64,000 nucleotides of DNA from Planctomycetota bacterium (GCA_024277065.1 JAJRVY010000179.1:7645-71644); one strand, 5' to 3'. Positions 3,062-42,986 are shown, counted from the stretch's first letter. Notes: generated from the letters alone by a model not told the origin. A program made the numbers and translations.

Positions 3062-4747
3062 ATGGCGGACGTGCGCGTCAAGGGACAGCTCATGGTCGAG
3101 AAGATCAGCACGCTGCCCACCACGACGCTGCCCGTCAGCACGACCCCCTCGCAGTTCCTGAACGGCGGCGAGGTTGATTACGGCACGGTCAGTGCTGTGC
3201 ACTACGCATCGCTGGTGGTCGGCGCCGGCAAGGTCGTGGATCTCAAGGGCACCAAGGCCCTGACGATCTACGCCGACACGATCGACGTCAAGGGCACTCT
3301 GCGGATCAACGGCCGCGAGCCGCCCTGGGGCTTCACGTCCGCCAGGACCGGTGGTGTGGACGGTTCGGCGCCGGTCGGCGACTACGGTTCCAGCAGCGCG
3401 TCTTCGCCGACGCCACCGACACAGTATGTCGGCGCCAAGGGCAACCTGGGTGGCGGCAACGGCGGCGATGGCCAGACGAACTCCGGTTCGTCGTCCAAGG
3501 GCAACGCCTATCGTTCGTTCGGCAAGGACGGCACGGGCCCGCAGGCGGGCACGAACGTCCACAAGACGACGTCGCCTGGTTGGAGTTCGGGTAGCACCTT
3601 CCACTACTCCGGTGACGCGGGCGGTGGCGGTGGCGGCAACGCCACCGAGGGCGACTCGGGCTGGGCGCCGTACGTCATCGGCGGCCGCTACAACTACGTC
3701 GGCTTCAAGGCCGGCGAGAACAACGGCCGCTCGCCGGCCAACGTCGCGAGCGACGTCGGCAACGGCGGCGGTCGCGTCGATCCCAGCAACATCACCGTGG
3801 CGACTCTCGGCAACGCCGTGGGGTCGGGCGGCGGTGGTGGCAACGACAGCATGTACTCGTACATTCGTGCGGGACTCTGGAACTGGAACTACTACGGCAT
3901 GAATGGCGCGGCCGGCTCGGCGGCCGGTGCGCTCGCACTGGTCGGCGACGACACGCTCACCGTGTCCGGCACCATCGAGGCCAAGGGCGGCTCGGGCAAC
4001 CTGCCCGGTGGTGCCTACATCAACTCCCGGACGTATGCCAACAGTGGTGGCGGCGCCGGTTCGGGCGGCACCGTGATGCTCGTCGGGGACACGGTCTCCA
4101 TCGCGGCCATCACGAACATCAACGACGCCACGAGTGGTGCCACGTTCGATCTGAACGGCGGCATCGGTGGCGGTCGCCGCCAGCAGTACCGCAACAGCTC
4201 GACGATCAGCCGCTATCCGACCTACAACTCCTTCGGCACGTTCGGCGGAGACGGTGGCTACGGTCGGCTCATCGTGCAGTACACGAACAGTCTGAACTCC
4301 GGTGCCACGCTCTTCAACCGAGGAGGCATGGAGCACGTCGGCTTCGACGACAACAACCGCGTCTACTCGGTGCTCGCCGGCACCGCCCGTGCTCGCTGCC
4401 TGGGCGGCAACGACGGCGGGAACTACCGCTCGACGTGGTACGACCTCGACTCGCTCTCGCCGGTGGTGAACGACGTCGCGCCGGGGACGGTGGGCGGCAA
4501 TACGACCTTCACCATCCAGGGTGAGGGCGCGCAGTCCGATCCACACGATCCGGGGCCCGGCGGGACCGGGGTGGCGGACGATGCCAATACGAGCGGCATG
4601 CAGTCGGCGGCCACGGGCTTCCTCAACGGTTGGCGCTTCTTCCGCTTCGGAGGGACGATCAGCCGTACGACCACGGATCCGACCAAGCCGCCGCCTGTGC
4701 TCGACGACGTGGCGTTCCCGTACGTCACGGACGACCTGGCGGACTAA
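3062..4747 (+). CDS. Gly/Asn/Ser-rich repeat surface protein. It is a paralogous continuation of the upstream giant protein, in the same frame and separated from it by a single TGA.
   Basis: 561-aa ORF with GGxG repeats and recurring GDGGYGRLIVQY-type motifs. The 48 nt between the upstream TGA and this ATG are open in-frame and encode DGGPGRLVVESPSF. Confidence 0.55.
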   Translation: MADVRVKGQLMVEKISTLPTTTLPVSTTPSQFLNGGEVDYGTVSAVHYASLVVGAGKVVDLKGTKALTIYADTIDVKGTLRINGREPPWGFTSARTGGVDGSAPVGDYGSSSASSPTPPTQYVGAKGNLGGGNGGDGQTNSGSSSKGNAYRSFGKDGTGPQAGTNVHKTTSPGWSSGSTFHYSGDAGGGGGGNATEGDSGWAPYVIGGRYNYVGFKAGENNGRSPANVASDVGNGGGRVDPSNITVATLGNAVGSGGGGGNDSMYSYIRAGLWNWNYYGMNGAAGSAAGALALVGDDTLTVSGTIEAKGGSGNLPGGAYINSRTYANSGGGAGSGGTVMLVGDTVSIAAITNINDATSGATFDLNGGIGGGRRQQYRNSSTISRYPTYNSFGTFGGDGGYGRLIVQYTNSLNSGATLFNRGGMEHVGFDDNNRVYSVLAGTARARCLGGNDGGNYRSTWYDLDSLSPVVNDVAPGTVGGNTTFTIQGEGAQSDPHDPGPGGTGVADDANTSGMQSAATGFLNGWRFFRFGGTISRTTTDPTKPPPVLDDVAFPYVTDDLAD

Positions 4748-4802
4748 CGTCCCAAGGAACTACCGGTCGGAGGGATGACCCTCACGGATCGATGACAACA
4801 CG

Positions 4803-4838
4803 AGAGGCCGCCCGGCAACGGGCGGCCTCTTCTTCGTT
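4803..4838 (+). terminator. Rho-independent terminator (GAGGCCGCCCG-GCAA-CGGGCGGCCTC followed by TTCTTCGTT) downstream of the Gly-rich protein gene.
   Basis: Perfect 11-bp GC stem plus T-rich tail, read directly from the sequence. Confidence 0.6.
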
Positions 4839-4934
4839 GAGCCCTGCGTTCTCGTATGAACCTCCGGCTCCTCCTCAGCGCCTGCCCGTCGGCGGGGGCG
4901 CCGCGCGGCGTCGTGTGCGTGATAGCCTGCGGGC

Positions 4935-5747
4935 GTGCGCCACCCACGTGTGCTGACGATTGCCGGTTCGGACCCGAGCGGTGGCGCGGGGCTTCAGGCG
5001 GATCTGAAGGTCTTCCACGCATTTCGCTGCTACGGCATGGCGGCGGTGACCGCGCTCACCGCGCAGAACACCGTCGGCGTCGAGGGCGTACACGGCGTCC
5101 CGGCGGAGTTCCTGGAGCGGCAGATCGCGGTCCTCGTGGACGACTGTCCGCCGCTCGCCACGAAGACCGGGATGCTGTTCTCCGCCGCCGCGGCCCATGT
5201 CGTGGCGCGCTGGGCCGAGCGAGGAGCCCTCGGCGTGCTGGTCGTGGATCCGGTGATGGTCGCAACGAGCGGCGATGCGTTGGTGGAGCCGGACGCCGTC
5301 GCCGCGATCCGCAGCCATCTCCTGCCGTGCGCCGCGGTGATCACGCCGAACCTCCCCGAGGCCGGTGTGCTCCTCGGGCGAGCCGTCACGGACGCGGATC
5401 ATGCGCGGGCCGCCGCGGAGGATCTGGCGCGGGAGTACGGCGCCGTGGCGGTCGTGAAGGGCGGCGACGCGGCGGGGACGGGACCGATCCAGGACGTGGT
5501 GGCGCACCCCGGCGAGGCGGCCGCGTCGAGGACGCACGTGCGTGTGCCGCTGCCGGCAACGCACGGAACGGGGTGTACGCTCTCCGCGGCCATTGCGGCC
5601 TGCCTGGCGCGCGGGCTCGATGAGGCGTGTGCCATCGACCTGGCCACCGACTTCGTCGTTGCCGGGTTGCAGTCGGCCTTCGCCGTGGGGCACGGCGCCC
5701 GGCCCGTCAATCACTTTGCCGCGTCCGGCGTGGACGGCGCCGCGTGA
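4935..5747 (+). CDS. thiD: Hydroxymethylpyrimidine/phosphomethylpyrimidine kinase
   Basis: Begins VLTIAGSDPSGGAGLQADLK and contains GTGCTLSAAIAA, characteristic of the ThiD/PdxK ribokinase-like family. GTG start. Confidence 0.9.
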   Translation: MRHPRVLTIAGSDPSGGAGLQADLKVFHAFRCYGMAAVTALTAQNTVGVEGVHGVPAEFLERQIAVLVDDCPPLATKTGMLFSAAAAHVVARWAERGALGVLVVDPVMVATSGDALVEPDAVAAIRSHLLPCAAVITPNLPEAGVLLGRAVTDADHARAAAEDLAREYGAVAVVKGGDAAGTGPIQDVVAHPGEAAASRTHVRVPLPATHGTGCTLSAAIAACLARGLDEACAIDLATDFVVAGLQSAFAVGHGARPVNHFAASGVDGAA

Positions 5748-8310: not shown

Positions 8311-11300
8311 TCACTCGGTGTCGGGGATGGCGTCCAGTGCCCAGGCCACGAGCTCGGGAAGATCCTCCCAACGCTCGAACGCGGGTTCGGCGAGGGCCTG
8401 GGCCGCGGCCCGGTCGTCGCGCAGGATCGCCTCGTGGAGGAGATCCTGCGCCAGCACGTCGTCGCCGGCGCGTGCCAGCGCCCGCGCATACCAGTACGGA
8501 TACGAGGACCAGCGGTGCACGCGGCCGCGGCGGTGTGCGAGGTACTCTCCGCCGGCGTCGCGCACGCGCTTGCGATCGAGCCGCAGCGCCTCCGCGTACT
8601 GCGGCAGGCCGGCGGGGGGACCGTCGAGCCTCTCGTTGACCCAGCCGAGCCAGAGGTGCGCGCGCGCGTGGGCCTCGTCCACGGTCACCGTCTGGAGCAG
8701 CGCATCGCGCGCCGTCTCGTCGCCGAGCCCGATCTTCGCCCGGCCATAGCCCTCGAAGTACGCCAGCGCGCCGTTCTCGGGAGCGGGGGCTCGCAGACCG
8801 TCCAGCAGCGCCGTCGCGGCGACACGGTCGCCGGCAGCCGCCGCGGCCAGAGCTCGCAGGAGATCCCGCTTTCCGCGCTCCTCGAGGCGCCGCTCGGGCG
8901 ACCGCCAGCCCTCCTCGACGTCGGCGAGCGCGATCGCGGAATCGTGGGCTGCCGCCGCCTCGGCGAAGCGCCCCTCCGCCTCGAGCTGCGACGCCACGTA
9001 GCGCGACATCTCGACGTCGAGTGGCGAGAGCCGCGGCGCCGTGTGCAGAACGTGGCGCATCAGCGCCAGGGCGACGCCCGGGCGGCGCCGTTGCGGCAGG
9101 TTGTAGGCGCCGGGATCACGCAGGTAGCGCGCGATCCCGTCGATGTAGTCCTCGGCCAGTCGCACGTCGTCGCCGCTGCGCGCCAGGGGGGCCAGGCGCC
9201 TCTCGACCAGGTCGCGGCCGGTGGCCTCGTCGAAGTGCGACAATGCGCAGACGAGGGCGCGCGCCGAGCGCACGGGAGGCGCGCCGGCCGGCTTGAACGG
9301 ACCGTCGCCGGTCGTCGAGTAGGGCACGACGGCGCGCGCGATGTCCGGGTGCAGGAGGTGGCGCACGAGAGCCTCGCCGGCTGCGCGCGTGCCACATCGA
9401 CCGAGCGCGATCGCCGCACGGCGGTACACCTCGAGCGCCGGTGCACTGCTGAGCGACGCGCGGAGTGCGGGGCGCCGCCAGGCGTCGAGCATGGCGACCA
9501 GCGCGGGAACCGCAGGCGTGAAACGAAGCGCTCCGATCTGCTCGGCTGCCATGGCGAGCTTCTCCGCATCCTCGAGCTCGGAGAGGAGTTTCGTGAGCAG
9601 CGCACCGGCCTCGTCGCCGGCGGTCTCGGTCACCAGCCGCAGGGCCTCGCTCGTGAGTGCCTTGGAGCGCGATGCACGCGCCAGTTCGATCAACTCCGCG
9701 GGCGGCGGCGCCTTGCCGTCACGCGCGAGCAGCACCAGTGCGACCTCGCGCTCCTCGTCGTTCCAAGCGGCGCTGCGAAGACCTGCGGCGAGCTGCCGCG
9801 GCCGGATCTCGGCGTCCTCCGAGCGCAGCAGCATGAGGGCCGCCCAGCGGCGGCCGGATGACGCGAGCATCTCCTCGAACAGGGCGAGCGCCGCGGGTGA
9901 CCCCCCCAGAGTCGCGAGCGTCGCCAGGATCTCGCGACGCGTCGCCGGTGCATGCTCGCTCTCGAGGGCCGCCAGCAACGCGGCGTCGTCACTCGTGCGC
10001 ACGACGCGGCGCAGCAGGCGCGCGGCCGTCTCGCGGAGCACGTCGTCGTCGTCGCTTGCCAGCGTGCGCAGCAACTCGGGCCGTGCGCCCTCGCCCGCGC
10101 AGGCCTCGAGCGCCGCCAGGAGAGCGCGCCGCACGCGTCGGCGCCGCCGGCGCCGGTCGTCGGGCGACGACGGCGTGACGGCCGCGGTCTCCGGCGCGGC
10201 GGCGCGCTCCGCCCGCCTGTCGGAGCCGTTCTCGGTCTCGAGCGCCGTGCGGACGAGGTCGGCGTCGCTCTCGCGGCCCGCGCGCGCGATCAACTGCGCG
10301 GCCGCGGCTCGGACGTCGGCGTGGCCGTGGGAGAGGAGCCCGCGCGCGACGTCGGCGGCGGCCCCCGCGTCGCGCCGGGCGAGCGCCTCCAGCGCGTGCT
10401 CGCGCAGCCTGGCGGGCGTGGCCTCGCCCGCGGCTAGGCGCACCAGGACCGGTCCGGCGGGCAGGTCCGGGCGGCGCTTCAGGAGATCGACAGCAGCCCA
10501 ACGCGCCTCGCCGTCCCTGTGCGCGAGCGCGGCGTCGAGCCGCGCTGCGAGATCGTCGCCGCCGGAGGCCTCGATCGCGAGCAGCAGCGATCGTCGCACG
10601 CCGTCACCGGCGTGTCCGTCGAACGTCGCACGTAGTTCGTCGCGCAGGCGCGGCGCAAAGAGGAGCTGGATCTTGCGCAGCGCGAAGCGGCGTGTGGCCG
10701 GCGCCATCACGTCGGCCTGCGGCCCCACGGCGAGGTCCCGCAAGAGCTCGAAGGCCGCCTCGCGGCGGATCTCGAGCAGCGCCTCGACGATCAGCTCGAG
10801 CGGGCTGCCGTAGTGCTCGACCTTGCGCTGCGCGATGCGTCGGGCGACGTCGTCGGCGCTTCGCCGCAGCCACGGGACGGCCTCCGGCCCGAGGCGTCCG
10901 AGAGCCGCGCGGAGTGCCGCCGCGCCGGCGTCACCGAGCTGTCGCAGAACGGCATGCGCGACGAGGTCGTCGTCCAGCACCGTCGTCCCTCCCAGGTCGA
11001 GCAGCGCGGCGCCCGCGGCAGCCGCCATCTCGGCGTCGTCGCTCTCGAGCAGGCCGCAGCGCAGTGCCGGGAGCACGTCGTCCTCGCGATCGCGGTAGAG
11101 CCGCAGCGCCGCGAGTGCGAGAGAGCGGTCCACGGGGTCCGCTTCCGTGTCGTCGTAGATCGCGAGCAGGTGGGGCAAAGCCGCCGGCGCCCCGAGTGGC
11201 ACGATGGCGCGCAACGCGGCTCGCCGCGCGTCGGGGTCGGGGTCCTGGAGTTGCGCCACGAGCACGGGTTCCGCGCGCGCCCGCTGCAGCACACCGCGCA

Positions 11301-11808
11301 GCACGGCCCGGCGCAGCGCCGTGGCTGCGGCGGCGCGGACGCGCCAGACGGGTTCGTGGGCCGGGTCGCCGCGCGCGAGCAGGAGCGGCGCCACGGCGGC
11401 ATCGCCGATCTTCCCGATGCCGATGACGGCTGCCTCGCGCACGGCGAACGACGCGTCGCTCGCCGCGGGTCCGAGCAACGCGCCGGCCTGCGGGTCGTCC
11501 ATCTCGGCGACGGCCCCGATCAGGGCGGCGCGCGCATACCACGCGGCATCCACGAGTGCGGCGTCGATCTCCGGGAGCGCCGCCTTCCCGGCGCGCGCCA
11601 CGATCCGCGCGGCGTCCTGCGCCGCCGTGGGGCTCGCGGGATCGAGCAGCGCCGCGATCGCGCGCGTGACGGCGCCGTCCGCGACACGGACAGCGGGCCG
11701 CGCCGAGGCGGCGGCGGCGCAGAGGACGGCGCACGAGAGCAGGGCTGCGGTGACGAGGGAAGCCCGAGAACGTCTCACGACTTCATCGTAACTGCTACCC
11801 GCACGCAT
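8311..11808 (-). CDS. Large secreted HEAT-repeat (PBS-lyase-like) protein
   Basis: 1165-aa ORF with an N-terminal signal peptide (SLVTAALLSCAVLCAAAASA) and dozens of Ala/Leu/Arg-rich HEAT/PBS-lyase-type repeats. The start is uncertain: ATG at 11808 or GTG at 11778. Confidence 0.65.
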   Translation of the reverse strand: MRAGSSYDEVVRRSRASLVTAALLSCAVLCAAAASARPAVRVADGAVTRAIAALLDPASPTAAQDAARIVARAGKAALPEIDAALVDAAWYARAALIGAVAEMDDPQAGALLGPAASDASFAVREAAVIGIGKIGDAAVAPLLLARGDPAHEPVWRVRAAAATALRRAVLRGVLQRARAEPVLVAQLQDPDPDARRAALRAIVPLGAPAALPHLLAIYDDTEADPVDRSLALAALRLYRDREDDVLPALRCGLLESDDAEMAAAAGAALLDLGGTTVLDDDLVAHAVLRQLGDAGAAALRAALGRLGPEAVPWLRRSADDVARRIAQRKVEHYGSPLELIVEALLEIRREAAFELLRDLAVGPQADVMAPATRRFALRKIQLLFAPRLRDELRATFDGHAGDGVRRSLLLAIEASGGDDLAARLDAALAHRDGEARWAAVDLLKRRPDLPAGPVLVRLAAGEATPARLREHALEALARRDAGAAADVARGLLSHGHADVRAAAAQLIARAGRESDADLVRTALETENGSDRRAERAAAPETAAVTPSSPDDRRRRRRRVRRALLAALEACAGEGARPELLRTLASDDDDVLRETAARLLRRVVRTSDDAALLAALESEHAPATRREILATLATLGGSPAALALFEEMLASSGRRWAALMLLRSEDAEIRPRQLAAGLRSAAWNDEEREVALVLLARDGKAPPPAELIELARASRSKALTSEALRLVTETAGDEAGALLTKLLSELEDAEKLAMAAEQIGALRFTPAVPALVAMLDAWRRPALRASLSSAPALEVYRRAAIALGRCGTRAAGEALVRHLLHPDIARAVVPYSTTGDGPFKPAGAPPVRSARALVCALSHFDEATGRDLVERRLAPLARSGDDVRLAEDYIDGIARYLRDPGAYNLPQRRRPGVALALMRHVLHTAPRLSPLDVEMSRYVASQLEAEGRFAEAAAAHDSAIALADVEEGWRSPERRLEERGKRDLLRALAAAAAGDRVAATALLDGLRAPAPENGALAYFEGYGRAKIGLGDETARDALLQTVTVDEAHARAHLWLGWVNERLDGPPAGLPQYAEALRLDRKRVRDAGGEYLAHRRGRVHRWSSYPYWYARALARAGDDVLAQDLLHEAILRDDRAAAQALAEPAFERWEDLPELVAWALDAIPDTE

Positions 11809-12664: not shown

Positions 12665-13686
12665 CGCCAGGCGTCCAGGAGGATCTGGGGCACCTCGACC
12701 CGCACGCGGCCGACGTCGAGCCCGCGGTGGTTGCGCCGCACGGGGTCGTGGTGGGGGGCGAGACGCTCCCACACGGTGTCGTCCAGAACGCCGGCGCGGC
12801 GCAGCAGCGCCAGGCCCGCGCGGCGCGCGGCGTCCGCCGAGCCGTCCAGGCACTTGACGGCGAGCCCCGTGGACGTCGCCGCGACGCCGAGGCACCACAG
12901 GCCCTCGGCGCCGACCTTGCAGTGCACGCCGCCGCCGGTGGCGCGGATGACGTCGGTGTCCGACCGCGCGGTTCCCGCGATCATCTCCGGCGCGCTGCGG
13001 ACGGCATCGCGCAGGCGCAGGGCGGCGCCGCATGTCGCCCCGGAGAGACCCGCGCGCTCAGGCGCCACGACCGTCGCGGCGAGGCGCGCAGCGCCCGCGA
13101 GCGGCACCACGAACACCGGTGCGCTGCACCCATCGGTTCCCAGTGCGACATCGACGGCGGCGAGCCCCGCGTAGGCCGCGACATGTCCCCGGTTCAGGCG
13201 CTGCAGAGGATGATCCGGCGCGACGTAGTCCGCCGTCGGCCAACCCGCGGCGACACATGCGGCCAGCATGGCCGCGTGCTTCCCCGAGCAGTTGTTGTGC
13301 AGCGGCGTCGGCTCGCGTCCGGCGCGGACGAGAGCGGCGGCGCTGGGTTGGTGGACCGGCGCGTGCGCGCCGCAGAGGAGGTCCGACTCCGCGAGACCGA
13401 GCCGTTCGAGGAGCCCGCGCGCCACTGCGACGTGACGCGGCTCGCCGTTGTGCGACCCGCACGCGAGCGCGAGTTCTTCCGCAGTCATCGCGAAGCGGTC
13501 GGCGGCGCCCGTCACGATGCACGCCAGCGCTTGGACGGGCTTGGCCGCCGAACGCAGGAACACCGGTGCGCCGGTGGCGGTGCTCGCTGCGAGCTGCCGT
13601 CCGTCACGCCAGAGCGCGACGCGGACGCGGTGATCGGATTCCGGCAGCCCGGCTCTCTCGCGAATGACTCGAACCGCTCGCTCCAT
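12661..13686 (-). CDS. L-asparaginase II family protein (PF06089)
   Basis: Matches the conserved asparaginase II family (NNCSGKHAAMLAAC, GTDGCSAP). Its stop overlaps the nnrD start. Confidence 0.75.
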   Translation of the reverse strand: MERAVRVIRERAGLPESDHRVRVALWRDGRQLAASTATGAPVFLRSAAKPVQALACIVTGAADRFAMTAEELALACGSHNGEPRHVAVARGLLERLGLAESDLLCGAHAPVHQPSAAALVRAGREPTPLHNNCSGKHAAMLAACVAAGWPTADYVAPDHPLQRLNRGHVAAYAGLAAVDVALGTDGCSAPVFVVPLAGAARLAATVVAPERAGLSGATCGAALRLRDAVRSAPEMIAGTARSDTDVIRATGGGVHCKVGAEGLWCLGVAATSTGLAVKCLDGSADAARRAGLALLRRAGVLDDTVWERLAPHHDPVRRNHRGLDVGRVRVEVPQILLDAWR

Positions 13687-13763
13687 CCATAGATGATCGC
13701 GCGTCCGTCGCGGAACACGCGAGAACTCCGTCGTACCCCCGCTTCGGGAGGTAGAATTCCCCC

Positions 13764-14174
13764 ATGATCGAGGTGCAGCTTTCCCGAATCGTCATCCGCG
13801 AGACGAGTGATCAGCAGCGGATCTACCTGCGTGAGAAGGGGGGCACGCGGCAGTTCCCCATCGTGATCGGCATCCACGAGGCCGCGGCCATCGATCGCAA
13901 GGTGCGTGACCGCTCGCCGCCGCGGCCCATGACCCATGATCTCCTGGCGTCCGTCGTCGAGGCCCTGGAGGGACGCCTCGCGCGGGTCGTCATCTCGGAA
14001 CTGCGCCAGAACACGTTCATCGCCCGCCTAGAGCTGGTGCGCGGGTCCGGCGGAGAACCCGTCGAGGTCGATGCCCGCCCGAGCGACGCCGTCGCCCTCG
14101 CGGCTCATCTCGGCGCGCCGATCTTCGTCGAGAAGGCGGTCTTCGACGAGGTGCTCGCCTCGTCCAGCGATTGA
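13764..14174 (+). CDS. Bifunctional nuclease domain (BFN/DUF151) protein
   Basis: 136 aa. The ATG is preceded by GGGAGG. Sequence IVIGIHEAAAIDRKV...TFIARLEL is typical of the DUF151 family. Confidence 0.7.
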   Translation: MIEVQLSRIVIRETSDQQRIYLREKGGTRQFPIVIGIHEAAAIDRKVRDRSPPRPMTHDLLASVVEALEGRLARVVISELRQNTFIARLELVRGSGGEPVEVDARPSDAVALAAHLGAPIFVEKAVFDEVLASSSD

Positions 14175-14231
14175 GAAGCGCCGCGAATCCGCGCTCCGTG
14201 CCGCGGACACGTCAGTAGAAGACACGGCAGC

Positions 14232-14319
14232 GGAGGGGTGCCCGAGCGGTCGAAGGGAGCGGTTTTGAAAACCGCCGTAGGGCAACCTACCCGGGGTTCG
14301 AATCCCCGCCCCTCCGCCA
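14232..14319 (+). tRNA. tRNA-Ser, anticodon TGA (decodes UCA)
   Basis: Cloverleaf folded by hand. Acceptor GGAGGGG/CCCCTCC, anticodon loop TTTGAAA, long variable arm, T-loop TTCGAAT, encoded CCA. Confidence 0.9.
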
Positions 14320-14385
14320 CGGCGGAGCGCCGATCGTCACGGCGCCTGCCGGGCGACCGGGTGCGCATGCCGGATGCCGCGGTAG

Positions 14386-14409
14386 GGGGGCGGCCTACGT
14401 GCCGCCCCC
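14386..14409. terminator. GC-rich hairpin (GGGGGCGGC-CTACGT-GCCGCCCCC) between the tRNA-Ser gene and the convergent vWA gene. Possible bidirectional terminator without a U-tract.
   Basis: Perfect 9-bp stem seen in the sequence. No T-tract follows, so its function is uncertain. Confidence 0.3.
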
Positions 14410-14553
14410 GAACGTCCCCGGCGGCGGCGACGTTCTCCTGGGGGCCTCGCGGCCACCGGAGGCAACCCGCAGCGTCCCCGTAGGTTCGGTCATCGCCGCG
14501 GCATCGGCGTACAATGGCCGGCGCAGCCCGCCGAGGCCCCCTCCCTGCGGCGG

Positions 14554-17391
14554 CTACTTCTTCTCGGCGACGTGGACGAACTTGCCGTCGTTGCGCTCGG
14601 CCATGCCGCGCAGCAGGACAAGGTCCACGCCCTTGTTGCCGAAGCAGATGACGTGCGTGCGTACGCGCGTGTAGCGATTGAGCGCCGTGTACCACTCGAG
14701 CAGCGTGTCGGCGTCCGTCATCTCGCCGCGCGTCGGCATGCCGTCGGTGAGGAACGTCAGCGTGTCGGGCGTGCTGCGGAAGTTCGGGCTGGCATCGACG
14801 GTGTCGCCGAGGTCGAGAGCCGCTCGCAGCGCGCCGTAGTAGTTGGTCTCGCCCTTCGCGGGCAGCGCGCGCAGAAAGCCGAAGGCCTTCTTGATGTTGC
14901 CCGCGCTGGCTGCGATGGGGTTCTTCGACATGGTGCGGATCGTCGTGTTGAACGCGATCACGTTGAAGTGGCTGCGCGGGTCCAGCGTCTTGAGGGTCTG
15001 GGCGATCTCTTCCTTGCAGATGGTGATCTTGTTGGTGCCCGTGTACTTGCGCGAGAGCGACGTCACCATGCGCGGGTCCGGCGTGAAGTTGCTCTGCATG
15101 GAGAGTGAGTTGTCGAGCACGAAGCCGATGCGGCTGGAGTAGATCTCGATGCCGTAGTACTCCTGCTGCGCATAGCGGTCGTTGGGGTCCTTCTTCTTCT
15201 CCATGGGGCCGGTCTCGGTGGGCGCGTCGGGGCGCTTGGGCAGGCCGTTCGGACTGTTCGCCTTCTCGCGCTCCCACCACTTGCGCCAGTTCTCGGGCTT
15301 GCGGCCGAGGTCGTCGCGCGTGATGGCCTTCAGCGCGTCCTTGATGTCGCCGCGCACGCGGCCGGACTCGATCTCCATGCGCGTGATGAGGGGCTCGACG
15401 GCCTCCATGCTGCCGATCTTGCCGAGTGCCTGGCAGGCCGTGACGCGGAGCTGCCACTGCGGCGAAAGGAGATGCTTGACGATCAGCGGCACCGCCATGC
15501 CCGCCTCTTCGCCGAACATCGCCAGGGCGTCCATGGCCGCCACGCGCGCCTTCTCGGCCGGGTCGTTGACCATCGCGCGCAACTCGGACATCGCGCGAAT
15601 GTCCTGCATCCGGCCACAGGCGACCGCCGCCTCGGCGCGGGCGTACCAGTTGGAGTCCTCGAGCTGCTCACGCAGTTTGATGAGCGCGAACTCGAGCTGC
15701 TTGCGACCGCAGACGCGCGCCGTGTAGGCGCGCGACATCGCGTTCCTGTGATTGAGGCCGTACTGCCAGACGGTCTCGAGCACTTCCTGGTCGTCGATCT
15801 TCAGCAGCGTCACGACCGCCTGCTCACGGACGAGTTCGCTGTTCTTCTTGAAGAGGTCGATCACCACCTCGGCCGTCTCGCCGTCGGTGATCGTGCCGAG
15901 GCCGCGGATGAGCGCCGCGAGCTTCTGCGGGTCCGGTTCCGCGAGCAGTTTCTTGCGCTCGCGCTTGCCCGGGGCCTCGTTGCCCTCGAAGTCCTCCTCG
16001 GAGCGCGACGGGTCCATCGAGCGGCGCTTGCCCATCAGCCGCTCCGCGATCCGCTCGTGGAACACCTCGGGGGTCACGTTCAGGTGCTCCATGAACGCGT
16101 CGCGCGGCTCCTTCTGGCGGCGAATGTCCGCCAGCACCTTCACGAACGGTTCACGCCACTCCTCGAGCATGAGCTGGAAGTAGACCCACGCGCGCTTGTG
16201 GTCCACGAGTGTGAGCTGGCCGCCGGACGTCTTTCCGAACAGCTCCTCGATCGGCGCGAACTTCCTGCTCCGCGCGAGTTTCGTGCAGTCGGCCAGCCAG
16301 CTCTTGCCGCTGCCGCTGAGGGGTGTGCTCTCGTTGCCGCAGAACGTCACGTCGTCGCGGAAGCGTTCCTGCAGCTTGCAGAGCCAGTGCGCGGCGCCGA
16401 CGAACATCCATCGCGGCAGCGCGCGGTTGAGGCCGTCCACGACCGTCCAGCACGAGATGAAAATGTGCCCGAGCGCGTGGCGCATCGCCATGTGCTGCGT
16501 GTGGTCGCCGCTGAACTTCTGCTCCGACTGGCAGAAGCCGTTGAAGGCGAAACCGTCGGCCATCGAGTTGTCGTTGCTGCCGCCGTAGTTGATGTTCGTG
16601 CGTGCGGAGCCGAGGTAGGTGCCCTGGATCCTGGCCGCGTCGCGCTCCTTGGCCGGGATGTAGATGGCGGTCGGCTTGGTGATGCGGGGCGCGCTCCCGA
16701 AGTGCCGGACGAACTCGCGCCGCGCGTACTCGGCACGTTCGATCATGAGGTGCGCCCACTCGTGGGGACTCGCCATCCGGAAGCTGCCGCCGCCCTCGGT
16801 CCTGACCTTCATCGGGCCGACGTCGGTGACGAGGTAGAAGTTGCGGTTGTAGGCGACGATCACCTTCTTGGGCTTCTTGAAGAGGCGGCGCTCGCGCTCG
16901 AGGCGCGCCATCACCGTCTCCTCGGCTGGCCGCCCGAAGGCGTCCGTCGAGAGCGGGTTGTCGTCACCGTCCTGGCAGTCGGGACAGTTCTCGTGCCGCG
17001 GGTACTTGCAGCAGTCGTCGTTCTGCACGCACTCGCTGCACGTGATGCCCCACGCGACGGAGTGTCGCTTCAGGTAGCAGGCCATGCGGCTCGACGTGAA
17101 GCACAGCGGGTTCATGCCGTCCGGCACGGTCGTGCCGTCGTGCTGCGAGAACGTGCGGCAGCGATCACACCAGCACGGGTCGTTGGTCGGTGTCTTCGGG
17201 TTGCGCAGGTAGTGCTGGCACGCGCCGCCGCTCGTCATGCAGATGCAGTCGCGGCTGATCTCCTCGTCCGCGCCCATTGCGGACGTGCGCCCGATGAAGA
17301 CCGTCAGCGCGACGATCACGGTGACGAGCAGCGCGCGCGCGCGCCTGGCGGTCGGCATCCTGGGGAGCGGCGTCATGGGCACGAGGATCAT
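14554..17391 (-). CDS. Large secreted multidomain protein. Order of domains: signal peptide, an 18-Cys-rich module, a HExxH-containing domain (HEWAH), PBS-lyase HEAT repeats, and a C-terminal von Willebrand factor A domain (DNSLSM MIDAS motif).
   Basis: 945-aa ORF. It is K/N/Y/F/W-rich with visibly lower G+C than the R/A-rich neighbours. The vWA MIDAS motif and HEAT repeats are recognisable. Confidence 0.75.
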   Translation of the reverse strand: MILVPMTPLPRMPTARRARALLVTVIVALTVFIGRTSAMGADEEISRDCICMTSGGACQHYLRNPKTPTNDPCWCDRCRTFSQHDGTTVPDGMNPLCFTSSRMACYLKRHSVAWGITCSECVQNDDCCKYPRHENCPDCQDGDDNPLSTDAFGRPAEETVMARLERERRLFKKPKKVIVAYNRNFYLVTDVGPMKVRTEGGGSFRMASPHEWAHLMIERAEYARREFVRHFGSAPRITKPTAIYIPAKERDAARIQGTYLGSARTNINYGGSNDNSMADGFAFNGFCQSEQKFSGDHTQHMAMRHALGHIFISCWTVVDGLNRALPRWMFVGAAHWLCKLQERFRDDVTFCGNESTPLSGSGKSWLADCTKLARSRKFAPIEELFGKTSGGQLTLVDHKRAWVYFQLMLEEWREPFVKVLADIRRQKEPRDAFMEHLNVTPEVFHERIAERLMGKRRSMDPSRSEEDFEGNEAPGKRERKKLLAEPDPQKLAALIRGLGTITDGETAEVVIDLFKKNSELVREQAVVTLLKIDDQEVLETVWQYGLNHRNAMSRAYTARVCGRKQLEFALIKLREQLEDSNWYARAEAAVACGRMQDIRAMSELRAMVNDPAEKARVAAMDALAMFGEEAGMAVPLIVKHLLSPQWQLRVTACQALGKIGSMEAVEPLITRMEIESGRVRGDIKDALKAITRDDLGRKPENWRKWWEREKANSPNGLPKRPDAPTETGPMEKKKDPNDRYAQQEYYGIEIYSSRIGFVLDNSLSMQSNFTPDPRMVTSLSRKYTGTNKITICKEEIAQTLKTLDPRSHFNVIAFNTTIRTMSKNPIAASAGNIKKAFGFLRALPAKGETNYYGALRAALDLGDTVDASPNFRSTPDTLTFLTDGMPTRGEMTDADTLLEWYTALNRYTRVRTHVICFGNKGVDLVLLRGMAERNDGKFVHVAEKK

Positions 17392-17446
17392 CCTCTCCCC
17401 GGCGTGGCGGGGCAGCGACGACGTGGGTGATCGTCCGGTGGCAGCA

Positions 17447-17650
17447 TCACACGCCGTAACGGCGACGCGCGGAATCGAGGCGGCTGATCTGCGTGGACGA
17501 CGAACGCGTGTCGTGCTCCTTGCAGGTCAAGGTGCCGGGCTCGGTGGGCTTGCCGCACTGGCGGCCGGTGCGCTCGTCGTAGACCGGGCACGGGATCGCG
17601 TCGTCGCCGGCGTGCGCCCAGGGGTCTTCCTTGTCGTCTGTGCGGGCCAT
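17447..17650 (-). CDS. Possible small Cys-containing protein (about 67 aa; C-x10-C-x11-C-x2-H) upstream of the vWA gene.
   Basis: Short ORF beginning MARTDDKEDPW. No strong RBS. Low confidence. Confidence 0.25.
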   Translation of the reverse strand: MARTDDKEDPWAHAGDDAIPCPVYDERTGRQCGKPTEPGTLTCKEHDTRSSSTQISRLDSARRRYGV

Positions 17651-17721
17651 CCCACGAGCATACCATGCCGGCGGCGGGAGTGCCCCCGTGGGCGGCGGGT
17701 GCGGACGCGCGTGCGGGCATC

Positions 17722-17750
17722 TTGGCGTCGCCGGGCACTCTTGGTAGGTT
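17722..17750 (+). promoter_or_regulatory. Candidate sigma70-like promoter (TTGGCG - 17 nt - TAGGTT) about 50 nt upstream of tRNA-Ser(GCT).
   Basis: Hexamer match and spacing only. Confidence 0.3.
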
Positions 17751-17800
17751 GCGCGGCTCGCCGGGGAGAGGAGTGCCTCGAACCGGCCGGCCGACCGCGC

Positions 17801-17893
17801 GGAGAGATGGCTGAGTGGTCGAAAGCGCCTCATTGCTAATGAGGTGACGGGCCAAAAGCTCGTCCTCGGGTTCAAATCCCGATCTCTCCGCCA
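17801..17893 (+). tRNA. tRNA-Ser, anticodon GCT (decodes AGC/AGU)
   Basis: Acceptor GGAGAGA/TCTCTCC, anticodon loop TTGCTAA, long variable arm, T-loop TTCAAAT, encoded CCA. Confidence 0.9.
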
Positions 17894-17958
17894 TCGGCGG
17901 CCCGCTCGCGATCGCGACACGGTCGGGCGTCATCGACGCGTGTCGCCGGAGGTGTCCC

Positions 17959-18609
17959 ATGTCCAGAGCCCGCACGCTGGCCCTGCTCGCCGCCCTCGCA
18001 GGGGGCTCCTTGCTGACAGGTTGTCAGTCGGTGTACTACGACGCGATGGAGCTCGTGGGGCGCGAGAAGCGCGATCTCCTGCGCAGCGAACTGACCGGGA
18101 TGGTGGGAGATCAGGAGGACGCCGAAGAGGCGTTCACCGACGCCCTGACGCGCATCAAGGCGCTCACCGGCTTCGACGGCGGCGATCTCGAGCGCGAGTA
18201 CGACGCCCTCGCGGACGCCTACGACGATGCCGCCTCCGCCGCCGACGACATCGACGCGCGCATGGACGAGATCGAGACCGTGGCCGCCGACCTCTTCGCC
18301 GAGTGGGAAGAGGAGATCGGCGAGATCCAGTCGCCGTCGCTGAAGGCGGGCAGCCGCAAGAAGCTGCGCGAGACGCAGGCGCGCTACGGCCGGCTCCACG
18401 CGCGGCTGGTCGAGACGCGCGCCTCCATGGACCCTGCGCTGACGCTGCTCAAGGACCACACGCTGTTCCTCAAGCACAACCTCAACGCGGCTGCCGTGGG
18501 CGCTCTCGGCGACGAGATGAGCAACATCGAGGGTGAGATCGAGGTTCTGAAGCGCAGCATCCGGCAGTCGATCGAGGAGGCGCAGCGTTTCATCGAGGTG
18601 ATGTCGTAG
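17959..18609 (+). CDS. Lipoprotein (DUF2959-like) with lipobox LLTGC. Acidic and predicted coiled-coil.
   Basis: Signal peptide with lipobox cysteine. 216 aa, E/D/A-rich helical sequence. Confidence 0.6.
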   Translation: MSRARTLALLAALAGGSLLTGCQSVYYDAMELVGREKRDLLRSELTGMVGDQEDAEEAFTDALTRIKALTGFDGGDLEREYDALADAYDDAASAADDIDARMDEIETVAADLFAEWEEEIGEIQSPSLKAGSRKKLRETQARYGRLHARLVETRASMDPALTLLKDHTLFLKHNLNAAAVGALGDEMSNIEGEIEVLKRSIRQSIEEAQRFIEVMS

Positions 18610-18647
18610 GCGGCCTCTGGCGGCCCCGCGAGCGGCCGGCGATCGCG

Positions 18648-19709
18648 ATGCCGCGCGCGGTGGAGCGCTGCCTCGCGGCGTTCCTGAAGGAGCAGCACGG
18701 CAAGGCCACGCGCCCGCGCCTGGACGACGCCGTCGCGCAGCTCTCGGAGGCCTTCACGGCGGAGCGCGGACACCTGCCCGGCTCCTACCTCAACCTGCCG
18801 CCGGTGCGCAGCGCCTATCTGGCCCACTTCCACCCACAGCAGATCCTGCGCGGCATGGCCGGGATCGGCGAGGCGCTCCATCAGGCGCGCGCTCGCGCTC
18901 TTCGGCCGGGCACCGTGCCGCTGCGCGTGGCGGATCTGGGCGCCGGGCTCGGGGCCATGTCGCAGGCGCTCCTCTGCCACCTTGCCGACGAGGGGGACGA
19001 GCCGTGGCCAGAGCTGGCGCTCGTCGATCACCAGCGCTCGGCCGTCGCGGAGGCGCGGGCGCTCACGCTCGCCGTTGCGGAGGCGTTGCGCCCGGGGGCC
19101 GCCGCGCCGCGCGTGCGTTGCGCCGTCACGCGCATCGCGCCGTGGCGGCAGCGGGCCCGGCGCGCGGGCTGGCGCTTCGACGTGGTGCTCCTCGGCGCCG
19201 TCCTGAACGAGCAGCGGGACGACTGGGCGCCGCTCATGCACGGCGTCGCCGAGGTGCTGGCGCCGGGAGGCGTCGTCGTCGTGGTCGAGCCCGCCCTCGA
19301 CGAGACCGCCCGCCGCCTGATGGAGCTGCGCGAGGGCCTGCGCGAGGCCGTCACGACGCTCGCGCCCTGCACGCACGACGGCCCCTGTCCGCTGCTCGCG
19401 CGGCGCCGGGACTGGTGTTTCACGGTGCGCGCCGTGCGGCTGCCACGCGACGTGCGCCGCCGCGCCGAGTTGCTCGGGCACCAGTCGGCGGAGCTGCGCT
19501 ACGCGCTCTGGGCGTTCTGCCGGGGGCACGTCGGCGAGACCCGCACCGGGCCGCCGGCCCGTGTCGTCAGTGATCCGATGGGCCGCGAGCAGGTCTTGTG
19601 CGCCGCAGAGGGCGAATTGCGCGTGCGGCCACTGGCCGGAGCGCGCCGCGGCGACCTTGCCGTGCCGTTCAGCGAGCTGGGCGGAAGCCGCGGAAGCGCC
19701 CGTTCTTGA
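18648..19709 (+). CDS. SAM-dependent methyltransferase of the ribosomal small-subunit Rsm22-like family
   Basis: LPPVRSAYLAHFHPQQI...VADLGAGLGA methyltransferase motif I, and a C-terminal Cys cluster typical of the Rsm22 family. Confidence 0.65.
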   Translation: MPRAVERCLAAFLKEQHGKATRPRLDDAVAQLSEAFTAERGHLPGSYLNLPPVRSAYLAHFHPQQILRGMAGIGEALHQARARALRPGTVPLRVADLGAGLGAMSQALLCHLADEGDEPWPELALVDHQRSAVAEARALTLAVAEALRPGAAAPRVRCAVTRIAPWRQRARRAGWRFDVVLLGAVLNEQRDDWAPLMHGVAEVLAPGGVVVVVEPALDETARRLMELREGLREAVTTLAPCTHDGPCPLLARRRDWCFTVRAVRLPRDVRRRAELLGHQSAELRYALWAFCRGHVGETRTGPPARVVSDPMGREQVLCAAEGELRVRPLAGARRGDLAVPFSELGGSRGSARS

Positions 19710-35103: not shown

Positions 35104-35418
35104 ATGGAGAAGACGAAGGTCTTCGGCGCCCTGCGCGCCACGACGCTGGTCGCGCTCGCGGCAGGCGGCCTGATGTTCGCGACCACCGGCTGTCAGAGCG
35201 GCGACGGCGATTCCGCCGCCGAGAAGTCGTGTGGCGACATGGGCGCCGAGAAGTCGTGCGGCGACATGGGCGGCGAAAAGTCCTGTGGTGACATGGGCGC
35301 GGAGAAGGCCGCCGGCGAGAAGTCGTGCGGCGACATGAACGGCGAGAAGTCGTGCGGCGACATGAAGGGCGGCAAGGCCGACGGCGAGAAGTCCTGCGGC
35401 GAGAAGAGCTGCGGCTGA
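35104..35418 (+). CDS. Lipoprotein made of tandem (A/G)EKSCGDM(G/N/K)G repeats. Cys/Met/Asp-rich, so putatively metal-binding.
   Basis: Signal peptide with lipobox ATTGC. The ATG is preceded by GGGAG. Seven or eight near-identical 9-aa repeats. Confidence 0.6.
   Translation: MEKTKVFGALRATTLVALAAGGLMFATTGCQSGDGDSAAEKSCGDMGAEKSCGDMGGEKSCGDMGAEKAAGEKSCGDMNGEKSCGDMKGGKADGEKSCGEKSCG
35221..35415 (+). repeat. 27-bp tandem DNA repeats (GAGAAGTCGTGCGGCGACATGGGCGGC and variants) encoding the EKSCGDMG units
   Basis: Seen directly in the sequence. Confidence 0.8.
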
Positions 35419-41939: not shown

Positions 41940-42986
41940 ATGAACCCTCCCGATTCCTCTCCCCGCGGCTCGATCCTCCCCGCGTGGATCGCCGGAGCCC
42001 TCGTCGTCGTCGTCGCCCTGCAGGTGCTCGCCGCCTGGCAGACGCGCGCCGCGCTGGACAGCCTCGACGCCACGGCGGCACGGCTCGAGAAGGCCGCCAT
42101 CGAAACCGAGCAGGTGGCGCGCCAGGTCAAGATGCTGGACGATCGCGTGCGCCGCATCGAGGTCGTCGCCGACGAGTGGGACTTCCTGATCGATGATGTC
42201 GAGAAGATCAACGGACAGGTTTCCGACCTCATCCGCGCCCTCGAGGGGCGCGATGGCCTGGACATCGGCGGCGTGCCGCAGCCGCCGGACCTCGATTGGA
42301 CGGAGCCCGAGCTGCGCGAGGCTGCGCGGCAGGCTGCGGCCACGGTGGGCATCACGCTGACCGACGACGAGATCCGCATCCCGGCGCGCATCGTCCTGCG
42401 CGAGGGCATCCTCGAGTACTTCGCGGTCCTCAAGGGCGGCAAGGAGCACGAGTCGCTGATCTCCCTCGTGGGTAACGCCGGCGAGGGGGAGCGCCGTCCG
42501 AAGGAGTTCGGCGCGAAGCTGAACAACGCGATCCAGGCCCTCGGCTTCCGTCGCGGGACGCCCATCCGCTTCACGGCCGCCGGGACGCGGCCGGCCGAGG
42601 GCGAGACCATGTACCTGTTCGTCGAGTGGCAGGAGGCCGGCAAGCCGGTCCTCGTCCGCGCCGAGGACCTGGTCTGGGACCGCATCCGCGACCGGGCGAT
42701 GCCCCACGACGCGTGGGTCTACGTCGGATCGAGCTGGGTGGAGGGCGACGCTCCCGGCGAGTTGGTCTTCGCCGCCGACCTGACGGCCGAAGCGATTGCC
42801 ACGTACTCCGCCGTGAACACCATCATCGACACGCGCGCGCCGGGCGCGCAGGACGACACGGTCTTCCTGGTCGCGTCGCCGCGCCTGCCCGAGGGCGTCA
42901 GCGACTGCACGCTGATCATCCGTCGAGAGGACCGCGAACCGACGCGGACGTTCCCGGATCCGCGCGCCGCGGACCAGGATGAGTGA
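41940..42986 (+). CDS. Membrane-anchored hypothetical protein (N-terminal TM, coiled-coil, C-terminal globular domain)
   Basis: 348-aa ORF with no confident family match. Confidence 0.45.
   Translation: MNPPDSSPRGSILPAWIAGALVVVVALQVLAAWQTRAALDSLDATAARLEKAAIETEQVARQVKMLDDRVRRIEVVADEWDFLIDDVEKINGQVSDLIRALEGRDGLDIGGVPQPPDLDWTEPELREAARQAAATVGITLTDDEIRIPARIVLREGILEYFAVLKGGKEHESLISLVGNAGEGERRPKEFGAKLNNAIQALGFRRGTPIRFTAAGTRPAEGETMYLFVEWQEAGKPVLVRAEDLVWDRIRDRAMPHDAWVYVGSSWVEGDAPGELVFAADLTAEAIATYSAVNTIIDTRAPGAQDDTVFLVASPRLPEGVSDCTLIIRREDREPTRTFPDPRAADQDE

Follow-up and report, generated by a model that had tools for sequence, protein, structure and literature searches.

The gene described here lies in a window of 64,000 nucleotides from a Planctomycetota bacterium, the window being the whole stretch of DNA that was analysed. 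It occupies the minus strand, encodes a protein of 945 aa and is bracketed by two tRNA-Ser genes. The features of the locus are the following:

8311-11808, minus strand: second HEAT-repeat protein, 1165 aa, with a signal-like N-terminus
14232..14319, plus strand: tRNA-Ser(tga), downstream flank of the 945-aa gene (ARAGORN; Rfam tRNA 54 bits, E 5e-11)
14554..17391 (stop codon included), minus strand: ORF of 945 aa, putatively exported Cys-rich / zincin-like / HEAT / VWA protein (ORF call, translation)
14557..15144, minus strand: VWA domain with intact MIDAS, aa 750-945 (DNSLS at nt 15100-15114; Pfam)
15256..15966, minus strand: HEAT-repeat solenoid of PBS-lyase type, aa 476-712 (Pfam, AF2 model)
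15997..16944, minus strand: gluzincin-fold domain, M9-collagenase-like and DUF1570/Peptidase_MA-related, aa 150-465 (profile and fold matches)
16381..16410, minus strand: WMFVGAAHWL, the "glutamate helix", aa 328-337, with V331 for the third zinc ligand (profile alignment)
16465..16479, minus strand: HALGH, aa 305-309, at the place of the canonical zincin HExxH; Ala for the catalytic Glu (profile alignment)
16750..16764, minus strand: HEWAH, aa 210-214, start of a long helix preceding the canonical active-site helix (sequence; models)
16957..17259, minus strand: Cys/His-rich module, aa 45-145, 14 Cys (Cys count; conservation)
17278..17391, minus strand: signal-peptide-like N-terminus, aa 1-38 (read from the sequence)
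17447..17650 (stop codon included), minus strand: ORF encoding a 67-aa Cys3-His protein, 58 nt upstream of the 945-aa gene and on the same strand
17801..17893, plus strand: tRNA-Ser(gct), upstream flank of the 945-aa gene (ARAGORN; Rfam 61.4 bits)

The boundaries of the 945-aa ORF given in a preliminary description of this DNA were borne out, as were the two tRNA-Ser genes, both of which were recovered by ARAGORN and Rfam, and the second HEAT-repeat protein with its signal-like N-terminus. The 67-aa ORF (MARTDD...CPVYDERTGRQCGKPTEPGTLTCKEH...RRRYGV) matched nothing in a Pfam and NCBIfam scan and has only 18 homologues among 5.8 billion proteins; the two homologues checked for context (L083 and L084) both lie within the same synteny. 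No conserved operon partner that would hint at the substrate of the 945-aa protein was found.

The gene had been described as clearly lower in G+C than its surroundings. With a value of 0.665, it is indeed the lowest of the 29 ORFs of the window (window mean 0.72), but five others come close to it (0.672-0.678) and its GC3 of 0.947 is the second highest of the 29. The deficit is confined to codon positions 1 and 2 (GC1 0.60, GC2 0.45). The codon-adaptation index (0.799, leave-one-out on the window ORFs) also ranks second of 29. Furthermore, the atypical amino-acid composition that had been noticed is real: F+Y+N+K+I+M amount to 23.9% of the protein, the highest value of the 29 ORFs, and R+A+G+P to 29.5%, the lowest. 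Therefore, the low G+C of the gene results from the amino-acid composition of its product, and GC3 and codon adaptation carry no foreign signature.

In each of the five closest relatives recovered, an orthologue occupies this locus, with 85% (L001), 75% (L007), 74% (L006), 70% (L008) and 64% (L002/L009) identity to the 945-aa protein. The tRNA-Ser(tga) gene and the 67-aa ORF adjoin the gene in all of them, and tRNA-Ser(gct) does so in four, the L006 contig ending upstream. tRNA-Ser(tga) is kept, with stem substitutions, in L001 and L006-L009; tRNA-Ser(gct) holds the same position in L001, L002, L007, L008, L009, L011 and L022, and the 67-aa ORF is kept upstream of the orthologue in the five relatives as well as in L011 and L022. 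Two conserved blocks flank the gene, DUF2959-Rsm22 at one end and BFN-asparaginase II-NAD(P)HX dehydratase at the other. Beyond these housekeeping genes, wherever the locus reaches that far (L001, L002 and L007), lies an 1150-aa HEAT protein. Partial synteny is retained at 51-56% identity (L011, L019, L022 and the P0043/P0058 contig).

These data bear on the proposal that the gene came in by horizontal transfer, as cargo of a genomic island inserted at a tRNA-Ser gene. As in tRNA-linked islands, the gene adjoins tRNA genes; its G+C is the lowest in the window and tRNA-adjacent insertions do exist in relatives. For instance, in L002 an IS66 transposase block lies beyond tRNA-Ser(gct), and a TPR gene is accompanied by an inverted tRNA-Ser(tga); one further contig has a Rep_trans/HTH_17 block. 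However, none of these insertions falls between the two tRNAs, and the 945-aa gene itself is never missing. Unlike such islands, the locus shows no foreign composition and no patchy distribution: GC3 and codon usage are host-typical and among the highest of the window, and synteny is kept in relatives that range from 85% to about 51% identity. Moreover, as already stated in the preliminary description, neither an integrase (among the scanned neighbours, which are housekeeping genes) nor att-like direct repeats derived from the tRNA 3' end (in 13600-18700) were found. Ordinary composition and orthologues at the same locus had been named beforehand as the observations that would tell against an island; both were made, and the island reading therefore fails and is now extremely improbable. 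The gene is almost certainly a native, vertically inherited member of a conserved family from an uncultured, high-GC Planctomycetota lineage. Hence, a pair of tRNA genes with a dip in G+C does not amount to an island, and GC3, codon usage and synteny decide the matter fast here.

The family comprises 103 homologues, almost all full-length, that share 34-85% identity with the 945-aa protein; the organism names, where the source supplies them, are all Planctomycetes/Planctomycetota. All 77 genome loci come from MAGs assigned to Planctomycetota or a subgroup, except four labelled "uncultured bacterium" only. There are up to three paralogues per genome, and several MAGs carry three copies. The existing annotation of the family is "HEAT repeat protein" only, and no experimentally studied member was found in the literature searched.

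The full-length AF2 model of the protein has a pLDDT of 85.1 and a pTM of 0.75. By eye, aa 1-38 read as RRAR, then LLVTVIVALTVFIG, then TSA, with a hydrophobic core of 15 residues following the basic stretch, in agreement with the signal peptide initially reported; the AF2 model has a helix at 15-32 with low pLDDT. A crude script detected a comparable hydrophobic stretch in 90 of the 96 full-length homologues. Judging from this N-terminus, the protein is likely exported, to the periplasm or the cell surface, and the stretch may be an uncleaved anchor instead of a cleaved signal. The Cys-rich N-terminal module of the preliminary description is present, but it contains 14 Cys (aa 45-145) and not 18, the whole protein having 24. 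It is modelled at pLDDT 88-98. Its core (C49, C58, H60, C73, C75, C78, H84, H110, C118 and C121) is kept in at least 88% of the members, and one paralogue clade largely lacks C51, C97, C105, C127, C128, C136 and C139 as a set.

The C-terminal half matches what had been proposed. The PBS-lyase HEAT repeats are recognised by Pfam (HEAT_2 85.3 bits, HEAT 31.2, HEAT_PBS 27.0) and modelled as about eight helical pairs at aa 476-712 (pLDDT about 92-97), with PDB profile matches to alphaRep and other HEAT proteins. The VWA domain scores above the cut-offs of VWA_3 (29.9 bits) and VWA_2 (28.1 bits) and has all the MIDAS residues (D760-x-S762-x-S764, T849 and D883), which are kept in 41-42 of 42 homologues. 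It is closest to the VWA of inter-alpha-trypsin-inhibitor heavy chains (ITIH), which belongs with the VIT-VWA proteins, and partially matches TIGR03788 (sortase target). However, the 945-aa protein has neither a VIT domain nor a sortase signal, and its TIGR03788 score is 52 bits against a cut-off of 552.

The N-terminal region, part of what had been suggested to be possibly novel, indeed has no annotation in Pfam and NCBIfam. Nevertheless, aa 150-465 show the beta-sheet, active-site helix and Glu helix of the thermolysin-like zincin fold, with M9 and M1 enzymes as top fold matches. Clear homologues of this domain are stand-alone secreted proteins of about 390 aa of the planctomycetal DUF1570 (PF07607) / Peptidase_MA_2 (PF13485) kind (hmmsearch E 1e-27 to 1e-13; hhalign probability 100). 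They have in common with the 945-aa protein a CxxC-rich leader, in which CSEC...CC...CPDC aligns with the same motif of the module, a H-x-x-x-H-LY-x-R-x-E helix, a H-[NH]-x-x-H motif, W-x-D-E-G-x-A-H, the equivalents of C351 and E354 and, in the five sequences read, a signal-like N-terminus. The 945-aa protein differs from them by a longer Cys module and by its fusion to HEAT and VWA. Only distant stand-alone relatives reach scores around the Pfam gathering thresholds (DUF1570 22.8 against 22; MA_2 32.2 against 32.4); the window protein and 42 family members match neither family, even at E <= 1-10. The literature searched contained no characterised member of DUF1570 or Peptidase_MA_2.

Through these relatives, a weak direct profile link (E 0.0045) leads to the peptidase domain of M9 collagenases (Grimontia hollisae 7wss; Clostridium ColG, ColH and ColT). 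It aligns both the HExxH helix (HnxxH with HEYVH) and the W-x-x-E-G-x-A Glu helix (WldEG with WWSEG). Both proteins are exported, as predicted for ours, and combined with helical-repeat modules. However, identity is only 11-12%, TM is about 0.35-0.44 and Pfam Peptidase_M9 does not match the 945-aa protein. The latter has A306 and V331 in place of the catalytic and ligand Glu, adds the Cys-rich module and, one helix earlier, a further HExxH that is invariant, and carries HEAT and VWA instead of PKD and collagen-binding domains. Compared with M1 aminopeptidases and TAF2, it lacks the N-terminal beta domain and the GxMEN motif and has another domain order; no multi-domain structural match to them was obtained.

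The alignments locate the canonical site. HALGH pairs with "vvHnvaHlL" in the stand-alone relatives (hhalign A3/A4, probability 100), which in turn aligns to "LEHEYVHYL" of collagenase (A4 profile against 7wss), and the counterparts of WMFVGAAHWL are "WldeGlAhw" in the relatives and "WWSEGVAEYV" in collagenase. H305 is kept in 96 of 97 members and H309 in 93. Position 306 is M in 48, R in 12, Q in 11, L in 7, E in 6, S in 5, H in 3 and A in 2; at most one of 60 stand-alone relatives has Glu there. Position 331 is E in 76 members, V in 18, A in two and C in one, V being the state of the window protein and its orthologues, and H335 is kept in 86. Read from these alignments, the canonical site of the 945-aa protein is degenerate: the His pair H305/H309 is retained on the active-site helix without the catalytic Glu (A306), and V331 replaces the third ligand. 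We consider it very likely that aa 150-465 adopt a zincin fold whose canonical site has degenerated.

HEWAH had been presented as the HExxH motif. The motif is real and its H210, E211 and H214 are invariant (97/97), but it is not the canonical zincin motif, which maps to H305-A-L-G-H309. Models place it on helix 209-231. Of the 60 stand-alone relatives, 47 retain H210, 55 retain H214 and only 18 retain E211. D296 and E354 are also invariant in the 97 members. Such conservation of H210, E211, H214, D296 and E354, and of H305 but for one member, despite 34-85% identity, speaks against a pure pseudo-enzyme: it is above what is expected for a purely structural one and agrees with a catalytic or metal centre that has been kept or re-wired.

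Our preferred explanation, which we hold to be reasonably probable, is a native exported protein that joins a degenerate zincin domain, a HEAT solenoid and a VWA/MIDAS domain and has a metal-dependent binding or scaffold role. The protein would retain metal binding at the MIDAS and probably also at the conserved His clusters. In the periplasm or on the surface of the cell, the VWA/MIDAS domain and the HEAT solenoid would bind a partner, either a protein or a polymer, and an extended peptide would sit in the zincin cleft. The main role would thus be metal-dependent binding or scaffolding and not that of a classical HExxH+E protease. There is a precedent: TAF2 is a pseudo-enzyme relative of M1 aminopeptidases in which the fold persists as a non-catalytic scaffold. 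For a binding role that is non-proteolytic, rather than a re-wired hydrolase, we see about an even chance.

The strongest alternative, although rather unlikely, is that the protein is exported and active, as a peptidase or another hydrolase, with a re-wired site. Metal would be bound at H305/H309, H335 would replace the lost Glu331, the general base would come from elsewhere (E211 of HEWAH, E354 or D296), and the HEAT and VWA domains would serve as exosites that recruit the substrate, as happens in collagenases and M1 aminopeptidases. A catalytic domain joined to helical-repeat domains is likewise known from M9 and M1 enzymes, and the conservation of H210, E211, H214, D296, E354, H305 and H309 suits this scheme. 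Furthermore, all members without E331 have H335 (D335 in one) and 10 of the 11 members without H335 have E331. However, this pattern does not reach statistical significance: chance alone would give about 2.4 double-negatives, and one was seen. In addition, 91 of 97 members lack a catalytic Glu at 306, and E211 varies among the stand-alone relatives. From the order of secondary structures, the HEWAH helix would correspond to thermolysin helix 65-88, far from the zinc. A relocated catalytic centre, in which the canonical Glu base and Glu ligand have decayed and a new metal site, mono- or binuclear, is built from HEWAH, H305/H309/H335, D296 and E354, appears improbable; if true, the family would be an as yet uncharacterised class of exported metallohydrolases, possibly specific to Planctomycetota, using HEAT and VWA exosites.

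A classical zinc metalloprotease with HEWAH as its catalytic HExxH is very improbable, despite the perfectly conserved motif and the zincin fold, since the HEYVH and Glu helix of collagenase align to 305-309 and 328-337 and not to 210-214, the Pfam matches of the relatives to Peptidase_MA_2 and DUF1570 fall on the second motif, with the HALGH equivalent inside the matched stretch, and about 55 domain residues precede HEWAH, a topology that would differ from that of ColG and thermolysin, where about 125-140 precede HExxH. HEWAH was rejected as the catalytic motif on the profile alignments to M9 collagenase.

No long-standing question hinges on the 945-aa protein. Nevertheless, a family of more than 100 members, so far found only in MAGs of Planctomycetota, hides an unannotated collagenase-like zincin domain. 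With its lost catalytic residues and its invariant alternative HExxH, it offers a test case for how zincin folds become pseudo-enzymes or re-wire their metal sites. The 945-aa protein can also be viewed as a candidate binding protein of the cell envelope, which is unusual in Planctomycetota.

Our analysis shows that the large gene, encoding a 945-aa Cys-rich protein with zincin-like, HEAT and VWA domains, is a native gene. Its locus comprises the following features:

14232-14319, + strand: tRNA-Ser(tga), found by ARAGORN (Rfam 54 bits)
14554-17391, - strand: the large gene (ORF call, 945 aa)
17447-17650, - strand: 67-aa ORF on the same strand as the large gene, lying 58 nt upstream of it
17801-17893, + strand: tRNA-Ser(gct), found by ARAGORN (Rfam 61.4 bits)

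ARAGORN detects exactly two tRNAs within the 64 kb and, together with Rfam, confirms that tRNA-Ser genes bracket the large gene. The preliminary description had raised the possibility that the gene between them is a horizontally acquired module, while noting that integrase and direct repeats are absent. Indeed, no integrase occurs among the neighbours scanned and the repeat search returned no att-like repeats. The neighbours are housekeeping genes, encoding adenylosuccinate lyase, a 1165-aa HEAT protein, NAD(P)HX dehydratase, asparaginase II, a BFN-domain protein, DUF2959, an Rsm22-like methyltransferase and an M18 aminopeptidase. Scanning 14100-18000 for promoters and terminators revealed none.

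In related genomes, orthologues with 64-85% identity occupy the same interval. The closest homologues (loci L001, 85%; L007, 75%; L006, 74%; L008, 70%; L002/L009, 64%) all adjoin tRNA-Ser(tga) and the small ORF, and their flanking genes agree with those of the window over the full reach of each locus; tRNA-Ser(gct) is present in all but L006, whose contig stops short of that position. Furthermore, L011 (56%) and L022 (52%) retain tRNA-Ser(gct) and the small upstream ORF, and L019 (53%) retains tRNA-Ser(tga), BFN and asparaginase II. On JGI contig 3300047160, two tandem paralogues (P0043, 6332-9181, and P0058, 9285-12164; 51%) lie at the ancestral locus, and BFN, asparaginase II and the dehydratase come after them, beyond a Rep_trans/HTH_17 block. 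L002 carries, at 3678-5111 and 13144-15855, an IS66 transposase block, located between DUF2959 and tRNA-Ser(gct), and an 840-aa TPR gene with an inverted tRNA-Ser(tga). In all three cases, the mobile or extra DNA lies just outside the tRNA-Ser pair and not in the interval of the gene. The tRNA-Ser genes do act as insertion hotspots, but what they receive is not the HEAT/VWA gene. In L083 (6001-9441), a long-read contig with 3x coverage, the orthologue seems fragmented, leaving small ORFs plus a HEAT/VWA remnant of 350 aa, probably reflecting assembly frameshifts rather than a pseudogene.

The low G+C content that had first drawn attention to the gene is real in part: at 0.665 (window, 0.72), it is the lowest of the 29 confident ORFs, but five further ORFs lie at 0.672-0.678. 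The deficit is confined to codon positions 1 and 2 (GC1 0.60, GC2 0.45), GC3 (0.947) is the second highest within the window, and the leave-one-out codon-adaptation index (0.799), calculated with the other 28 ORFs as reference, ranks second of 29, both being typical of a native gene. The amino-acid bias seen earlier is also found, F+Y+N+K+I+M being the highest (23.9%) and R+A+G+P the lowest (29.5%) among window ORFs. Since synonymous codon usage is native and the residues are biased, the low G+C is an amino-acid effect. Therefore, with native codon usage and orthologues at the same locus, the hypothesis of an island acquired at the tRNA-Ser genes is unlikely and was rejected. Elsewhere in the window, 43001-44000 shows a local G+C spike (0.813) and a strong AT skew (-0.35), coinciding with long ORFs that occupy both strands and overlap (about 42916-43986).

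Concerning the protein itself, the HEAT repeats (Pfam HEAT_2, 85 bits) and the vWA domain with an intact MIDAS proposed earlier were both recovered, the latter just over threshold (VWA_3 29.9, VWA_2 28.1). The MIDAS residues D760, S762, S764, T849 and D883 are all present and are kept in 41-42 of 42 homologues. By contrast with the 18-cysteine module initially described, we counted 14 cysteines in aa 45-145, the whole protein having 24. The core of this module (C49, C58, H60, C73, C75, C78, H84, H110, C118, C121) is conserved at 88% or more for each residue, and C351 is kept in 94 of 97 members, whereas C51, C97, C105, C127, C128, C136 and C139 are mostly lost jointly in a single paralogue clade. 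A reading of CSEC...CPDC as a C4 zinc ribbon is only tentative because C136 and C139 are gone from this whole clade while C118 and C121 stay. The N-terminus reads RRAR, then LLVTVIVALTVFIG, then TSA, and AlphaFold2 predicts residues 15-32 as an isolated helix. It looks like a Sec signal, and the protein is probably exported.

Searches of the N-terminal 436 aa and its sub-fragments against Pfam and NCBIfam (E up to 10) gave no match, Pfam detected only HEAT and VWA families across 42 aligned members, and the profile of the family's N-terminal region, searched against PDB sequences, gave nothing significant (top match, TFB4 zinc ribbon, E 0.7). AlphaFold2, run on aa 40-475 with a 97-sequence alignment, yielded a model with a pLDDT of 93.6 and a pTM of 0.92. 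The figures listed for known structures, which carry no label, are as follows:

Grimontia collagenase 7wss: 14.9
ColT: 12.3
M30 lugdulysin: 12.1
ColG: 11.6
M1 aminopeptidases: about 10
thermolysin: 8.1

Independently, Foldseek ranks M9 peptidase domains at the top (E 4e-4, prob 1.0). Moreover, the N-terminal profile, used in an exhaustive HMM search, collected 521 representatives, many of them stand-alone proteins of about 390 aa, with signal-like N-termini in the five read. Some of these lie near Pfam cut-offs (DUF1570, 22.8 vs 22 bits; Peptidase_MA_2, 32.2 vs 32.4) over the stretch 'HNTAHLL...WLDEGFAHF'. A 52-protein profile of the stand-alone relatives matches collagenase 7wss by sequence (E 0.0045), aligning 'vvHnvaHlL' with 'LEHEYVHYL' and 'WldeGlAhw' with 'WWSEGVAEYV', and hhalign of the family profile against this profile (prob 100, E 3e-47) pairs 'MRHALGHIFIS' and 'WMFVGAAHWL' of the window protein with the same two stand-alone motifs. 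These alignments therefore place the canonical zincin site at H305-A306-x-x-H309 plus V331: the His pair is retained, but neither the catalytic Glu nor the third ligand is present. Among 97 members, position 306 is M (48), R (12), Q (11), L (7), E (6), S (5), H (3) or A (2) and position 331 is E (76), V (18), A (2) or C (1); in the stand-alone relatives, position 306 is mostly N or H, with Glu in at most one of 60. The domain very probably adopts a zincin fold with a degenerate canonical site. Members without E331 all carry H335, except one with D335. This either-or pattern, considered as a sign of retained metal binding, is real but indistinguishable from chance and is no more than suggestive because only about 2.4 double-negatives are expected.

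The chief rival to a binding role is a re-wired hydrolase using E211, E354 or D296 as general base; the extreme conservation of these residues keeps it in play, yet we consider it rather doubtful. H210, E211, H214, D296 and E354 are invariant in 97 of 97 members, and H305 is kept in 96 of 97. Most stand-alone relatives also have H210 and H214, but E211 occurs in only 18 of 60. A classical protease with HEWAH as active site is unlikely: the motif highlighted in the preliminary description is present (aa 210-214), but the canonical site maps elsewhere, and HEWAH begins a long helix (209-231) preceding the active-site helix, which by secondary-structure order would correspond to the long N-domain helix before the active-site helix of thermolysin-like enzymes.

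Other features of the window deserve mention. The 67-aa ORF holds the same position at all orthologous loci found, counts just 18 homologues among 5.8 billion proteins, shows a C-x10-C-x11-C-x2-H motif with a basic tail and lacks any Pfam or NCBIfam match or signal peptide; its product could be a small regulator or partner that binds zinc and is specific to the lineage. It is bracketed by a 19-nt inverted repeat (17391-17409 / 17754-17772, 89% complementary, GCCGGGGAGAGGA core), one arm overlapping the large gene's ribosome-binding region and the other just upstream of tRNA-Ser(gct), which may be due to chance. In the small ORF at 35104-35418 (+ strand), a lipobox-like signal (…LMFATTGC) precedes a tandem array of about eight 'EKSCGDM' repeats (35205-35415); the ORF may encode a Cys/Met/Asp-rich repeat lipoprotein binding soft metals. 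The second secreted HEAT protein reported earlier (1165 aa, 8311-11808, - strand) does have a signal-like N-terminus and shows no relation to the 945-aa protein by BLAST; it is also syntenic in L001, L002 and L007 (49-73% identity), and the greater part of it falls in no assigned family.

Searching 5.8 billion proteins yielded 103 homologues of the window protein, nearly all full-length (34-85% identity; coverage 94-99%, save a few truncated entries), with generic annotations (HEAT-repeat, VWA or hypothetical). Every organism name supplied by the source is Planctomycetes or Planctomycetota, and the neighbour-joining tree groups the window protein with P0001-P0005. Relatives are encoded in 174 stretches from 185,579 species-level genomes; the 77 loci listed all come from MAGs, assigned to Planctomycetota or a subgroup except four labelled 'uncultured bacterium'. 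These data show a conserved family confined to Planctomycetota MAGs among the genomes sampled. Several MAGs harbor three paralogues each: CBDFJG (L009, L015, L028), CALKVK (L007, L016, L045) and JAJFFG (L008, L017, L026). Together with the tandem P0043/P0058 pair, these dispersed copies point to repeated duplication of the family in Planctomycetota. Literature searches on Planctomycetes HEAT/VWA metallopeptidases, DUF1570 and Peptidase_MA_2 returned nothing relevant. The protein would act mainly by binding, VWA/MIDAS and HEAT being protein-interaction modules and the zincin cleft a putative peptide-binding groove, with metal bound at the MIDAS and probably also at the His clusters. The family is uncharacterised, and its N-terminal domain, to which HEAT and VWA domains are fused, represents a newly recognised branch of the M9/DUF1570/MA_2 zincins that is catalytically degenerate.
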